From Thermodesulfobacteriota bacterium (lineage in GTDB: Bacteria; Desulfobacterota; Desulfobulbia; Desulfobulbales; SURF-16), in contig JBFMAY010000049.1 of assembly GCA_040755455.1 (NCBI GenBank), positions 1 to 25,476 of the forward strand: a stretch of DNA of 25,476 nucleotides, read 5' to 3'. The translations under genes were made by a program, and so were the position numbers. A model generated the notes under the pieces. The model saw only the letters and a list, made by a program, of their open reading frames with translations, made no database searches and was not told the origin of the DNA. This document shows positions 2,989 to 6,218 of this stretch, piece by piece (positions within the stretch are counted from its first letter, which is position 1; every line of letters starts with the position of its first letter).

Positions 2989-3051
2989 TTAACCCTTACA
3001 TTAAAAAAACAAAGATGTAAAAAAAGCTGCTCATTCGAACATGCAACCATG

Positions 3052-3120
3052 GGCATTCCGGGCAAGGGAAGCTCGACCCGGAATCCATGGATTTTCTGGA
3101 TTCCCGCTGTCGGGAATGAC
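3052..3120. repeat. REP/dRS3-like composite palindrome
   Basis: ATTCCGGG(3055-3062)/CCCGGAAT(3077-3084), GGAATCCA(3080-3087)/TGGATTCC(3097-3104), ATTCCCG-ctgt-CGGGAAT(3100-3117), ending GGAATGAC. Confidence 0.65.
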
Positions 3121-3496
3121 ATGATTGCGCCATCTTGATTGCGAACTTGAATCAATAGCCAGCGGTTCCCCCATTATAATCGCAATATCGGTTACCGATA
3201 AAAATTATTTTAGCGCTCCATTTTATTTACAGAAGAAACAAACACGGGAAAGCTATCACATCGCCACACAGGTCAAAAGCTGCGGGCAAAACGACCAGTG
3301 TAGCCGAAACCGGCAGCAAATCCTTTGCCTGAACATGGAAGAAAGCTTGCAGTGATACGGGAATTAGTGTAAAAAAGGCAGTAATTTTCAGCGGAAATAA
3401 AGGCGCATTACTTTTATAACATCCGGCCTCCAGTAACAGTCGGCAACAACTCAATCAATATGCCGACCAGCAGACAGCTGGGAATATATCCCAAAA

Positions 3497-3572
3497 GCCC
3501 TCGTAGCTCAGTGGATAGAGCACAGGATTCCTAATCCTGGTGCCGCAGGTTCGATTCCTGCCGGGGGCACCA
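3497..3572 (+). tRNA. tRNA-Arg(CCT)
   Basis: 76-nt cloverleaf: GCCCTCG/CGGGGGC acceptor stem, AGTGGATA D-loop, CAGGA-TTCCTAA-TCCTG anticodon arm (CCT at 3530-3532), GCAGG-TTCGATT-CCTGC T arm, encoded CCA. Confidence 0.97.
3527..3572 (+). repeat. attL core (3' half of tRNA-Arg)
   Basis: 46-bp direct repeat with 5852-5897, one mismatch (G3560/A5885). Confidence 0.92.
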
Positions 3573-3620
3573 ATAATTTCAATTAGTTACATCATCACTA
3601 TAAGTGCGCCTTTGGACAAT

Positions 3621-3654
3621 TGGGTACGATTTTGGAACGATTTCCGTACCGAAA
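3621..3654 (+). repeat. GGGTACG repeat block, copy 1 (candidate integrase arm-type sites)
   Basis: TGGGTACGATTTTGGAACGATTTCCGTACCGAAA; 32/34 identical to 4607-4640. Confidence 0.85.
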
Positions 3655-3687
3655 AGCACCAGGATTTTTAGTTCTGGTGCTTTTTTT
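3652..3687. terminator. Bidirectional intrinsic terminator-like hairpin (unit 1)
   Basis: AAAAGCACCAGGA-TTTTTAG-TTCTGGTGCTTTTTTT, with A and T tracts on both sides. Confidence 0.75.
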
Positions 3688-3688
3688 A

Positions 3689-3834
3689 TGGCAGGGCAAG
3701 GATTTGCACCTTGCATGACAAGCGATTTGCTCCTACTCCCCTACTTGGATGACCTTCGGGTTTTGCATACGGCTTTTTGTCATCATTGAGAGCTTGCCTT
3801 CCCAGTTCATGCGTCTACCTATTCCGCACCTGCC
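3689..3834 (-). ncRNA. tRNA-like ncRNA with a ~90-nt insert replacing the anticodon arm (possibly skipping-rope motif class)
   Basis: Minus strand: GGCAGG-T-GCGGAATAGGTAGACGC-ATGA...TCAT-G-CAAGG-TGCAAAT-CCTTG-CCCTGCC-A, giving acceptor-, D- and T-like arms, followed directly by the terminator. Confidence 0.72.
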
Positions 3835-3846
3835 TCAAATTATATT

Positions 3847-4077
3847 TTATTCCAATTCCTTAACAACACAGCTTTCTGTCTCTGTATCAACAATTACTGT
3901 CAAATACTCACCATACTCAAACCATTTCCCACATAATTCCATAATACTTTCTTTTCTCTTTTTCTTGATAACCTCTATTTCTTCTTCGTTGACACCGCTT
4001 ACCTGTAGTTCTTCAAGGGCGTAGTCAATGGCATCATATAAAACATCGGGGTCTTTTAATGTGATTTCAATTTTCAT
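3847..4077 (-). CDS. Small acidic hypothetical protein, phage-like (76 aa)
   Basis: Clean ATG ORF directly downstream of the conserved TTGACA promoter. Confidence 0.75.
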   Translation of the reverse strand: MKIEITLKDPDVLYDAIDYALEELQVSGVNEEEIEVIKKKRKESIMELCGKWFEYGEYLTVIVDTETESCVVKELE

Positions 4078-4086
4078 AAATTTTTA

Positions 4087-4143
4087 TTTAATAATTATAT
4101 CTTTATGGTAGCATACTCCTACTAACTGTCAATGTGGACAACT
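4087..4143 (-). promoter_or_regulatory. Conserved 57-bp block, copy 1: DnaA-box-like TTGTCCACA, TTGACA-N16-TACCAT with extended -10 TG
   Basis: 52/57 identical to 4925-4981. Confidence 0.8.
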
Positions 4144-4159
4144 TTTGAGGAGAAGAGAA

Positions 4160-4603
4160 ATGAAAAGGAGATCGTTTTTTGTTTTTTTGATTGCTTTTGT
4201 GTTTGGTTTTTGTGTTTCCCAAATTAAAGATGCAAATGCCTCGGTCAGTGAGAAAGAGGCAATATCAAATTCGTCTTATTGGGGATTTATAAAAAACTAT
4301 GATAAGAAAAAATATGACAGTGAAAAAACAAGAGGCCTGACTGTGTTCCATGAGGTTGTTTATACAACTGGCAATGTAAGAAACCTAACTATCGTTTATG
4401 ATGAGATTTGGGAAGCGGATGACGCAGCATTTTTAACACCTGCTGAGATTCAAAAATATAAAAACGATTTGAATCATATAAAAATCTATTGGAAAAATGA
4501 CAAAGTTCAAGCTTATGTCATCGAAAGAAAATACACATCGACAGGAGCCCATGAGGTTACAGACATTTTTGATAGAGCCTATATTTTAAAAAATATGCGA
4601 TAA
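4160..4603 (+). CDS. Secreted hypothetical protein (147 aa)
   Basis: GAGGAG RBS, ATG 4160; MKRRSFF-hydrophobic-ANA signal peptide; stop codon lies 1 bp before repeat block 2. Confidence 0.8.
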   Translation: MKRRSFFVFLIAFVFGFCVSQIKDANASVSEKEAISNSSYWGFIKNYDKKKYDSEKTRGLTVFHEVVYTTGNVRNLTIVYDEIWEADDAAFLTPAEIQKYKNDLNHIKIYWKNDKVQAYVIERKYTSTGAHEVTDIFDRAYILKNMR

Positions 4604-4604
4604 C

Positions 4605-4640
4605 TCTGGGTACGATTTGGGTACGATTTCCGTACCGAAA
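4605..4640 (+). repeat. GGGTACG repeat block, copy 2 (junction between units)
   Basis: TCTGGGTACGATTTGGGTACGATTTCCGTACCGAAA; first 21 nt identical to copy 3, 3' part identical to copy 1. Confidence 0.88.
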
Positions 4641-4641
4641 C

Positions 4642-4681
4642 AAAAAAAAGAGCACAGGATTCCAAGTTCTGTTCTCTTTTT
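4642..4681. terminator. Bidirectional terminator-like hairpin (unit 2)
   Basis: AAAAAAAAGAGCACAGGA-TTCCAAG-TTCTGTTCTCTTTTT. Confidence 0.7.
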
Positions 4682-4738
4682 CATTTTGTTTTTCTATGTC
4701 GGCAAAATACTGGGTATATCAACGTGTCTACCCATTTC

Positions 4739-4915
4739 TTATGCAAGGTATTCCCTTATTTCTTCAAGCACACCACTAATTTCGTAAAACACTTTTGCTG
4801 GTTCATCGCCATACCCAAAGCTAACAATAAACCCGTTAGACGCTTTATTTACTGTAACACTTGTTCTTTTTGGCTTAGATTCAGCTAAGCCTGTTGTGGT
4901 AGTATCTTCTCCCAT
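4739..4915 (-). CDS. 58-aa hypothetical protein (absent from the ORF track)
   Basis: Hand translation MGEDTTTTGLAESKPKRTSVTVNKASNGFIVSFGYGDEPAKVFYEISGVLEEIREYLA*; ATG at the same distance from the conserved promoter as the unit-1 ORF. Confidence 0.7.
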   Translation of the reverse strand: MGEDTTTTGLAESKPKRTSVTVNKASNGFIVSFGYGDEPAKVFYEISGVLEEIREYLA

Positions 4916-4924
4916 ATTTTTTTC

Positions 4925-4981
4925 TTTAATAATTATACATTTATGATAGCATACTCCTATTAACTGTCAATGTGGATAACT
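4925..4981 (-). promoter_or_regulatory. Conserved 57-bp block, copy 2: perfect DnaA box TTATCCACA, TTGACA-N16-TATCAT with extended -10 TG
   Basis: 52/57 identical to 4087-4143. Confidence 0.8.
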
Positions 4982-4992
4982 GGAGAGTACAC

Positions 4993-5235
4993 ATGGATAG
5001 CAAAACATGGAAAATAGTTGCTGCTACTTGCACCGTTATAGGTTTGTTTCTTGGTTTTTTAGAATTATATTTCCGACCAAGTGTGCTTTTGTTGGAAAAT
5101 TCTAAAACTTATCCTGATTGGGCAAAATGGTTCAGGCTTGTGATGACGTCAGTAGCCCCAATTGCATACATTATTTTGGATGTTTTTGAGCACAAAAAAT
5201 CTAAAAAAAATAAACAGATTTCTGATAATCAATGA
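4993..5235 (+). CDS. Small two-TM membrane protein (80 aa), paralog A
   Basis: GGAGAG RBS before ATG 4993; two hydrophobic segments; shares APIAYIIxDVFEHKK with the next ORF. Confidence 0.8.
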   Translation: MDSKTWKIVAATCTVIGLFLGFLELYFRPSVLLLENSKTYPDWAKWFRLVMTSVAPIAYIILDVFEHKKSKKNKQISDNQ

Positions 5236-5471
5236 CCAAACGAGACCTGAAAATTATAACTGGGACACTAACTGTTGTCGGAATTATAATGGCAGTCTTG
5301 GAGCAATATTTTGCACCTGATTATTTAACATTCGGAAGTTCCCCGTTGGGTAAACCTTGGTTTATTTGGTTAAAACTGGCAATAACTTCTCTCGCCCCTA
5401 TCGCATATATTATCGTAGATGTTTTTGAGCATAAAAAAGGCAATATGGAGAAACGACATGAAAAGTACTGA
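5232..5471 (+). CDS. Small two-TM membrane protein (79 aa), paralog B
   Basis: ATGA overlap with paralog A; collinear similarity over its whole length. Confidence 0.8.
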   Translation: MTKRDLKIITGTLTVVGIIMAVLEQYFAPDYLTFGSSPLGKPWFIWLKLAITSLAPIAYIIVDVFEHKKGNMEKRHEKY

Positions 5472-5712
5472 ACAGGTTATGCCTGTCATCAAAAAAATCT
5501 ATGAAGAAAAATTACACAAAAATCAAAACGAGATTATCAAGTTAATAATTGACAAGAATCATAACTATATCGTTTTAAAAGATGACTGGAAAACGACAAT
5601 CCTAAGAAAAGACATTGATGATTACTTTGACCCACAAAAGGAAACAAAACAGAAAAGAGCTGCAGAACTCAAAATCATTCACGCCCTAGAAAACTTCGAG
5701 AAGATAGATTAG
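5458..5712 (+). CDS. Hypothetical soluble protein (84 aa)
   Basis: GGAG RBS, ATG 5458; TAG stop directly abuts repeat block 3. Confidence 0.7.
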   Translation: MKSTEQVMPVIKKIYEEKLHKNQNEIIKLIIDKNHNYIVLKDDWKTTILRKDIDDYFDPQKETKQKRAAELKIIHALENFEKID

Positions 5713-5733
5713 TCTGGGTACGATTTGGGTACG
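5713..5733 (+). repeat. GGGTACG repeat block, copy 3
   Basis: TCTGGGTACGATTTGGGTACG, identical to 4605-4625. Confidence 0.88.
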
Positions 5734-5851
5734 GAAAAGTTGGGAAACTATCGAAAATGAGGAAAAACAAGGGAAAGATTAGAAAGGAATTTTTATAATA
5801 TTTTTAATCATTTAAACGATTTTAGATAGTTACAAAAAAGGGTTAGTGGGA

Positions 5852-5897
5852 ATTCCTAATCCTGGTGCCGCAGGTTCGATTCCTACCGGGGGCACCA
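5852..5897 (+). repeat. attR core (duplicated tRNA-Arg 3' half)
   Basis: ATTCCTAATCCTGGTGCCGCAGGTTCGATTCCTACCGGGGGCACCA; starts just before the anticodon loop. Confidence 0.92.
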
Positions 5898-5903
5898 AAA
5901 AAC

Positions 5904-5955
5904 AATAAGGGACTTGCAAGCGAAATCAGCTTGTTGGTCCTTTATTTTGTTTTTT
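5904..5955 (+). terminator. Probable original tRNA terminator, now after attR
   Basis: AATAAGGGAC..CAAGC-loop-GCTTG..GTCCTTTATT hairpin followed by a T-rich tract. Confidence 0.55.
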
Positions 5956-6218
5956 ATGGAATCAGCACGACTCTCCAGATCATCAATAAAGCAAAAACCA
6001 AAAAATCGACAACTCTTTTGCTGGATCAGCGCAAAGAGATTGACATAAACTTGCGGTTTCATAACGCATTCCCTTTCGTACTTTGGCCAGGCAGCAAATC
6101 TGTCTTTGACATCTCCGTCTTTTTCTGCTTTGTTTGTAGCGGCGTAACTGATCAGGTCGACAGTCTGAAAAGAGCCGACTGACCAGGGAAAAGCGCAAAC
6201 AGGGAAGGTGGTCACCAC

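Follow-up and report, generated by a model that had tools for sequence, protein, structure and literature searches.

The DNA considered here (the window) is the whole of contig C49, 25,476 bases long, of the draft genome of a Thermodesulfobacteriota bacterium (G000; 3.98 Mb in 87 contigs, 92% complete), and the feature under study is a small islet inserted at its tRNA-Arg(CCT) gene; genomes of the same genus (G001, G004 and G008) and of another genus of the same family (G036) recur below. The tRNA gene is intact (3497..3572, + strand; identified by ARAGORN and matched by Rfam RF00005 at 71.2 bits) and is followed by the islet itself, window 3573-5851, which comprises 2,279 bp at 35% GC between flanks of 52% and 58%. 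Enclosing the islet are two 46-bp sequences in direct orientation, both representing the tRNA 3' half (repeat family D4): the left one consists of the 3' 46 nt of the tRNA gene, from the anticodon loop (attL identity block, 3527-3572, + strand), and the right one is a displaced copy of the same half (attR core, 5852-5897, + strand), identical at 45/46 positions, the single change breaking the T-stem. Immediately to its right lies the native tRNA terminator hairpin (5900..5952, + strand; fold -23.2 kcal/mol).

In G008 (contig C28) and G001 (contig C92) the site is empty, the tRNA-Arg(CCT) gene directly abutting the homologue of window 5900-5946; taken together with the repeat of the tRNA 3' half, this identifies the stretch as a site-specific insertion into the tRNA gene, and the native 3' half and terminator are now displaced to the right of the islet. 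A first-pass annotation of the window, made from the letters alone, had correctly located a pair of tandem cassettes at tRNA-Arg(CCT), the insertion being absent from these two genomes, and had ended the feature at 5733, short of the closing 46-bp tRNA copy. Within 3300-6100 an Rfam scan at E<=1 gave the tRNA as the sole credible match. Three other pairs of a tRNA and its partial copy exist in G000, at tRNA-Pro(CGG), tRNA-Lys(CTT) and tRNA-Leu(GAG), and all of them start close to the anticodon loop. Contig C1 (93246-95165) bears another small segment bounded by a tRNA and its copy: here a 44-bp, 91% identical copy of the 3' part of tRNA-Pro(GGG) lies 1.8 kb onward from the gene; the interval holds one long open reading frame (ORF) of normal GC content and no integrase-like arm repeats.

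The islet is made of two tandem modules of ~1 kb, A and B, having a common layout: a block of GGGTACG repeats, a hairpin, a leftward ORF, a conserved block and one or more rightward ORFs. The 34-bp block at 3621-3654 recurs at 4607-4640 with 32/34 positions (94%) identical (repeat family D6), and a third, shorter GGGTACG copy lies at 5715-5737 (repeat family D1); the conserved blocks (A at 4075..4143, repeat family D2; B at 4913..4981) agree at 52/57 positions in their core, with a similarity that extends to 69 nt (61/69, 88%). The shared layout and the 34-bp and 57-bp repeats are therefore as first described; the stop codons, placed by the same annotation 0-1 bp before the next block, actually precede the next TGGGTACG by 3 and 2 bp. 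Beyond the conserved blocks the similarity between the units breaks off abruptly, which is the pattern expected of two different elements having a common backbone.

Each conserved block holds a leftward promoter-like site, TTGACA-16-TACCAT in A (10/12) and TTGACA-16-TATCAT in B (11/12, the best of the region), together with a DnaA-box-like sequence, TGTGGACAA just upstream of the rightward ORF in A and a perfect TGTGGATAA in B, the TGTGGAYAA of the block being identical to the DnaA-box consensus. The two leftward sites are the best sigma-70-like sites of the region, in which the total count of such sites is no higher than in shuffles. Hairpin A (3652..3687; + strand fold -20.5 kcal/mol, z -5.9) and hairpin B (4645..4681; + strand fold -14.5 kcal/mol, z -3.8) are flanked by A and T runs and form stable folds on both strands, the former being likely a bidirectional terminator; for blocks and hairpins alike, promoter and terminator functions are predictions from sequence.

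Six small genes make up the cargo. Unit A carries A-left (3847..4077, - strand; 76 aa, no family) and A-right (4160..4603, + strand; 147 aa), whose N-terminus looks signal-peptide-like by eye and for which no homologue was found: a search of 5.8 billion clusters, confined to a range of lengths, returned only the protein itself, its Atlas model is poor (predicted local distance difference test, pLDDT, 0.38), and the ESM Atlas gave no usable feature match for either A-right or A-left, the structural neighbours falling below any naming bar. Unit B carries B-left (4739..4915, - strand; 58 aa, no family, unrelated to A-left) and three rightward ORFs, namely B-right1 (4993-5235, + strand) and B-right2 (5232-5471, + strand), both membrane-protein-like by eye, the start of the second overlapping the stop of the first, and B-right3 (5458..5712, + strand; 84 aa). 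The rightward ORFs begin 17-12 nt past the conserved block and have good Shine-Dalgarno sequences.

No Pfam, PHROG, PADLOC or NCBIfam match was obtained for any of the six. In an all-against-all BLASTP of their products the only related pair is B-right1/B-right2, which are paralogous (45% identity, E about 2e-23 to 3e-23), and no pair between A and B did better than E 0.56, so that the genes of the two units are unrelated, as had been judged by eye. B-right3 belongs to a small family of short proteins; at E<=1e-3 it has 10 relatives, all of them unnamed, of which nine are 74-88 aa long and the tenth, with 2383 aa, matches it in eight stretches. Its homologues share the same start Met, and it is probably a real gene. 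None of these relatives occurs in the 39 other genomes of the family, and a viral search returned one weak match.

The GGGTACG blocks are designated L, M and R from left to right. L (3621..3654, + strand) consists of three 11-bp phased repeats, GGGTACGATTT / TGGAACGATTT / CCGTACCGAAA, and starts 49 bp past the tRNA end, the intervening tRNA-proximal or P' arm spacer (3573..3620, + strand) being of 48 bp; in relatives that carry an integrase it is 47-53 bp, measured in the same way. R (5707..5737, + strand) consists of two 11-bp phased repeats of GGGTACGATTTGGGTACG with a conserved left context, and its end lies 115 bp ahead of the right-hand tRNA half, from which it is separated by an AT-rich P arm spacer of ~115 bp (5738..5851, + strand); the T-loop of the partial tRNA follows R by 140 nt. 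M (4599..4640, + strand; repeat families D1 and D6) is a chimeric junction of the two: its first 27 nt, which include 8 nt of context holding the stop codon of the preceding ORF, match R at 25/27 positions and L at 18/27, and its last 15 nt match L at 15/15 and R at 3/15. The arm repeats are direct in orientation and share 18 nt of identity. No core site lies between units A and B, hence single units are not excisable by core-site recombination. In the whole assembly neither clustered GGGTACG repeats nor the scaffold occur a second time.

What these blocks may be is indicated by an integrase-bearing island of the same genome, at tRNA-Lys(CTT) (contigs C38/C45), where a gene for a 360-aa tyrosine integrase (Pfam PF00589) lies directly beside the tRNA. 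A two-fold direct repeat, GTGTGTGAATCTGTGTGTGA, begins there 48 bp past the tRNA end, after a hairpin and within the 3' end of the integrase gene, and recurs on contig C45, where ~109 bp separate it from the attR core on its right, a displaced tRNA half; no internal copy, and no other copy in G000, was found. Since this autonomous island lacks an internal arm copy, such a copy is no normal part of elements of this kind. The attR ends of sister islands in G008 and G001 have the same arrangement. Islet and island are alike in the anticodon-loop crossover, in the duplicated tRNA 3' half and in the phased repeats ~48 bp after the tRNA and ~110 bp before the attR core; they differ in that the islet has no integrase, excisionase or replication gene, and in that the repeat is GTGTGWG with a 12-bp period in the island and GGGTACG with an 11-bp period, plus an extra internal arm block, in the islet.

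The geometry is not peculiar to this pair. When 14 loci of the family having homologues of the tRNA-Lys integrase were compared (two of them cover one place), an exact 7-mer repeat with a 10-12-bp period was present 46-50 nt past a tRNA in 9/14 (Lys-CTT, Arg-TCT, Arg-ACG and Arg-TCG), comparable repeats being seen by eye at Asp-GTC and Glu-TTC. Two further integrase-bearing islands of G000, at tRNA-Leu(TAA) (C17:46303-47593) and tRNA-Leu(GAG) (C39:33833-35145), have phased direct repeats of their own, GGAACAAAAAT x2 and AAAAGTGCGCCC x2 respectively, ~118 bp past the tRNA and just upstream of the integrase start.

The islet's own motif was followed in metagenomes with the 19-nt pattern TGG[G/C]TACGATTTGG[G/C]TACG, which occurs in at least 120 stretches, a count that includes some share of chance matches; 80 of these stretches (loci L082-L161) were examined. 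In the orientation of the islet, 8/80 loci have the motif 47-80 bp past the 3' end of a tRNA (Asn, Asp twice, Lys, Arg-TCG, Leu, Gly and Thr) and 4 more have it 108 bp past tRNA-Ser; on the other strand, 24/80 have it at a distance of 47-58 bp from such an end. Twelve of these 24 passed an ORF test for a long open frame ending just past the motif, with a C-terminus that reads by eye ...GYDLAT, and L084, the sole one of the twelve run against Pfam, encodes a tyrosine integrase. A reverse-strand Phage_integrase gene directly follows the motif at 6 of the 23 loci whose ORFs were run against Pfam; at L102, L119 and L150 the integrase lies further in, beyond intervening ORFs. The T-loop of a partial tRNA stands at +139 after the motif in 4/80 loci, which are of the attR type and closely related to each other, as compared with +140 in the islet. 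At L143, a motif locus at tRNA-Arg-TCG, the integrase is 33% identical (E 1e-43) to that of the tRNA-Lys island of G000. Altogether, GG(C/G)TACGATTTGG(C/G)TACG is common to elements at tRNAs Lys, Asn, Met, His, Leu, Phe, Asp, Arg, Thr, Gly and Ser. A full-text literature search with three motif strings returned no paper.

Two observations made at these metagenome loci may be recorded in their own right. The 19-nt motif often forms part of the integrase gene, supplying its final codons, the by-eye ...GYDLAT, and at L095, L116, L146 and L147 tiny integrase-only islands measure 1.5-3.3 kb from the tRNA to its partial copy.

In the lambda paradigm the integrase binds arm-type sites. From the matching sequence, the 11-bp phasing and the distances to the tRNA it follows, on this paradigm, that L and R can be taken as the putative arm-type sites of attL and attR for this subfamily of integrases. 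The first-pass annotation had seen in the GGGTACG block a new cassette recombination site; what it had come upon is an arm-type motif of widespread tRNA-targeting tyrosine integrases. It had also proposed a search for a tyrosine integrase associated with the same repeats, and such enzymes do exist at the metagenome motif loci; none was found in G000.

Indeed, the islet contains no integrase: tblastn with the tRNA-Lys enzyme reached E 1.7 at best, the 10 tyrosine recombinase (PF00589) genes of G000 all lie on contigs other than C49, and GGGTACG-type arms accompany none of them. Thus a tRNA with a far direct repeat, a presence/absence polymorphism and arm repeats at fixed distances, all marks of a lambda-type tRNA-integrated island, are present, and an integrase gene within the element is missing. 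A partial copy of tRNA-Arg(CCT) in another genome, G003 (contig C153), was considered as a partner and rejected, as it has a different repeat (TTACG) and adjoins an AbiEii gene. This copy (L049, 11950-11995) is a separate 46-bp 3'-half copy beside the AbiEii toxin-family gene, and the tRNA-Arg locus of G003 looks unoccupied.

In our judgement the islet is probably an integrase-less double relic, resembling a cis-mobilizable element (CIME), in which two accreted elements that entered tRNA-Arg(CCT) by way of a lambda-type tyrosine integrase have been fused. Entry would have occurred at the anticodon loop, catalysed by an integrase from the same subfamily as the one behind the tRNA-Lys island of G000; this enzyme would have bound the L and R blocks, and the 3' half borne by the element would have reconstituted the tRNA. 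Each element would have contributed small cargo genes of its own, along with a divergent promoter region and a terminator hairpin. Between two related elements integrated successively at the one tRNA there would lie an attP-like segment consisting of an R block, ~115 bp, a tRNA half, ~48 bp and an L block; recombination between the direct 18-nt arm repeats would then delete the core, leave exactly M and fuse the units. Because the native terminator has been displaced, hairpin A would be the first terminator downstream of the reconstituted tRNA, and this displacement may be the reason why each unit has a hairpin near its tRNA-proximal arm.

With attL and attR complete, excision of the islet as a single circle of 2.3 kb is conceivable in principle, given a matching integrase, and as a whole it is possibly still mobilisable in one piece by a foreign enzyme; both the order of events and any present mobility are conjectural. 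As to the idea that the units are sibling non-autonomous elements, the kinship, the different cargo and the lack of a recombinase hold good, whereas movement of single ~1-kb units, between which there is no core, is unsupported. In two public sequencing runs unit A (X1) and unit B (X2) are represented by identical 151-nt pieces at a depth of ~2, along with many unrelated tRNAs; two apparent read joints were discarded, their foreign letters deriving from other tRNAs, and among these low-depth fragments there was no joint indicative of a circle or an empty site.

Several observations weigh against this reconstruction. The repeat period is 11 bp in the islet, but the GTGTG-type islands of G000 have one of 12 bp, or of 10 bp at two loci, and the 48-bp spacer after the tRNA is without the hairpin that the integrase-bearing relatives have. 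What speaks for arm binding is position and conservation only, and the metagenome count is diluted by the chance matches mentioned above. A cognate integrase having GGGTACG arms at tRNA-Arg(CCT) was found neither in G000, nor by pattern search in 400 other genomes of the order, nor at the loci examined. Tandem integration followed by deletion is one reading of the chimera, and an intermediate with an intact internal core was nowhere seen.

A further difficulty for the double relic is that its hairpins resemble the tRNA. Hairpin A is similar to positions 22-47 of tRNA-Arg, hairpin B contains a 15-nt exact copy of positions 20-34 (repeat family D7), and a comparable stretch occurs in G004 (L050:216-255), the tRNA-like parts in the window being 3652-3680 and 4649-4671. 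Aligned with positions 20-47/56 of tRNA-Arg(CCT), hairpin A, hairpin B and the G004 stretch score 15, 17 and 15, values reached by 0/300, 0/300 and 1/300 shuffles, and the tRNA-like sequence includes ~10 nt lying 5' of the att identity block. A decayed junction core, a pseudo-attB for incoming elements and imprecise excision were each worked through by hand as origins of the hairpins, and none matches the order and spacing found. The likeness is unexplained by the model of two accreted elements.

Could a single element have given rise to both units? Unequal crossing-over between the left and right arm repeats of one decayed element would have duplicated its backbone, gene replacement following later. 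The arm repeats, direct and with 18 nt of identity, are able to recombine, an L x R crossover of sister copies gives exactly an R/L chimera like M, and the backbone parts are 88-94% identical. Duplicates, on the other hand, predict identical cargo, and no protein of A is related to one of B; the similarity stops sharply at the conserved-block edges, and both sets of cargo would have to be replaced with the short non-coding parts conserved. We regard this origin as unlikely. The plain tandem duplication of diverged homologues, which the annotation had named as fatal to its own proposal, does not apply either, given the unrelated proteins.

The relatives of the scaffold are few. In G004 a hairpin follows the same tRNA-Arg(CCT), with GGCTACGATTTGGCTACG at +48; next come a homologue of hairpin A and a leftward ORF that is a different one, after which the contig ends. 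In G036 a segment of ~400 bp lies beside tRNA-Leu(TAA), with a phased repeat, GGCTAAAATTTGGCTAAAG, 49 bp past the tRNA end, one 44-aa ORF, the promoter-block 18-mer (65 bp at 77% by blastn) and a second repeat block; G032, a close relative of G036, has an integrase-bearing island at tRNA-Leu(TAA) instead. An element of ~198 bp lies next to this segment (L005, G036:C86, 953-1147 of the displayed strand) and is present in G016 in at least 10 copies of 84-86% identity.

Searches further afield added little. Blastn of the islet vs 60 relatives gave two short matches, of which one is real (G036), that to L003 being an AT-rich chance similarity. In 401 genomes of the order the promoter-block 18-mer has, besides the islet and G036, three one-mismatch matches in coding sequence, equal to the rate of the reversed control; the promoter pattern has one match in the genome collection (G036) and none in metagenomes. 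The hairpin pattern, searched in 40 family genomes, is exact in G000 and G004; two further matches have three mismatches each and do not exceed the control, the reversed pattern giving nine in all. Phages and plasmids gave no blastn match, and no larger relative of the islet came to light in phages, plasmids, the genome collection or metagenomes. The prediction that the scaffold would recur elsewhere is thus borne out by two diverged relatives, that of G004 located at the same tRNA and that of G036 at tRNA-Leu(TAA), and fails for G000 itself, where there is no second copy.

There is also a bolder view, to which we give little credence: the integrase-less backbone, composed of arm repeats, a tRNA-like hairpin and a divergent promoter block, would be a hitch-hiking lineage in its own right that swaps cargo and borrows integrases having the same arms, with fusion of units through arm repeats making a small gene-capture array of a tRNA site and the hairpin serving as a functional pseudo-target instead of being a relic.

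Less probable still, though closest to what had first been proposed, is an active family of non-autonomous mini-elements, each ~1-kb unit of which would move alone, in the manner of an integron cassette, by means of its GGGTACG block and a core formed by the tRNA-like hairpin, a recombinase acting in trans. Three units, two in the islet and one in G004, combine the block and the tRNA-like hairpin with three different cargos; in G036 the promoter block stands between similarly placed blocks of other sequence at another tRNA; the hairpin beside each block resembles the integrase target, the anticodon arm; and the stop codons abut the next block. Against all this, the block is an ordinary arm site of tRNA integrases at ordinary distances from the tRNA core on both outer sides, M combines parts of the two outer blocks and is no complete site of its own, G000 has one copy of the scaffold, which is very rare elsewhere, and no partner recombinase was found. 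To speak of a new family of tRNA-targeting mini-elements was therefore an overstatement, since the block is a known arm-site motif and single-unit excision is unsupported, the layout being that of decayed, accreted elements.

That the islet is the remnant of a small iteron-type replicon, its 11-bp phased repeats being iterons and TGTGGATAA a DnaA box, is very improbable: DnaA-box-like 9-mers do occur in both conserved blocks, and the same 17-mer is found in a three-box cluster on a viral contig, but there is no Rep-like or other replication gene among the family matches and no blastn similarity to plasmids or phages, the repeats agree with integrase arm sites in place and sequence, and the 12 viral 17-mer matches are about the number expected by chance on a rough estimate of our own. 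Ten of the 12 look like chance, the other two, L019 and L021, share 20 nt, and we judged the set uninformative. On L021, positions 1490-1585, three copies of TGTGGATAAC lie within 75 bp, maybe an origin-like cluster of DnaA boxes, and two of them are inside an 18-nt repeat common to the G036 promoter block.

Outside the islet, contig bases 1-127 equal the end of contig C21 (69514-69640, opposite strand), probably an overlap in the assembly graph, and the first 400 bases are AT-rich (33% GC). Between a DUF502-like gene and the tRNA, window 3027-3157 holds a GC-rich repeat (about 55-130 bp), having the appearance of a repetitive extragenic palindromic (REP) or miniature inverted-repeat transposable element (MITE) type sequence, with many copies in all eight other genomes of the genus and three further copies in G000.

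How does the double relic compare with known systems? In CIMEs attL and attR are retained and the genes for integration and transfer are absent (PMC5704250). The islet is like the CIMEs of ICESt1-type elements of streptococci in keeping attL and attR, in having no integration or transfer genes that could be found, and in the tandem placement of related elements where the target gene ends (3' side). It differs in its far smaller size (2.3 kb for two elements), in the presumed deletion of the internal att site, only the outer pair of att sites being left, and in that no ancestral integrative and conjugative element (ICE) or integrative and mobilizable element (IME) can be identified, no remnant of an integrase, relaxase or other backbone gene having been matched. 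In the tycheposons of Prochlorococcus, as far as that account describes them, successive integrations occur at one tRNA, newer elements push older ones inward and degenerated remnants stay behind (bioRxiv 10.1101/2020.12.28.424599); in arrays of these elements, according to the same account, a partial tRNA copy separates neighbours (10.1101/2020.12.28.424599), and none separates the units of the islet.

With integron cassettes the units share shortness, tandem arrangement, variable cargo and a conserved non-coding boundary close to the end of an ORF. Unlike them, however, each unit has a promoter region of its own and its boundary is an arm site next to a tRNA core; moreover, there is no intI on the contig, and at the boundaries no imperfect palindrome of the attC type with GTTRRRY is seen on reading. 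The first-pass annotation had also invoked the promoter-stem-loop cassettes of T4-like phages, in which early promoters and stem-loops flank small genes in a phage genome; by blastn the islet shows no similarity to phages.

The islet is, in the end, an integrase-less, tRNA-bounded scar of a known type and no new kind of mobile element; taken by itself it is ordinary, a small and probably dead double remnant with six small genes. What it illustrates is that direct arm repeats on both sides of an element offer a simple route by which tandem elements can fuse or be deleted, and fusion or deletion of this kind may explain mosaic tRNA islands. Furthermore, since one arm motif is found at many different tRNAs, it would seem that in these integrases the arm specificity is kept while the specificity for the core, that is for the tRNA, diversifies.

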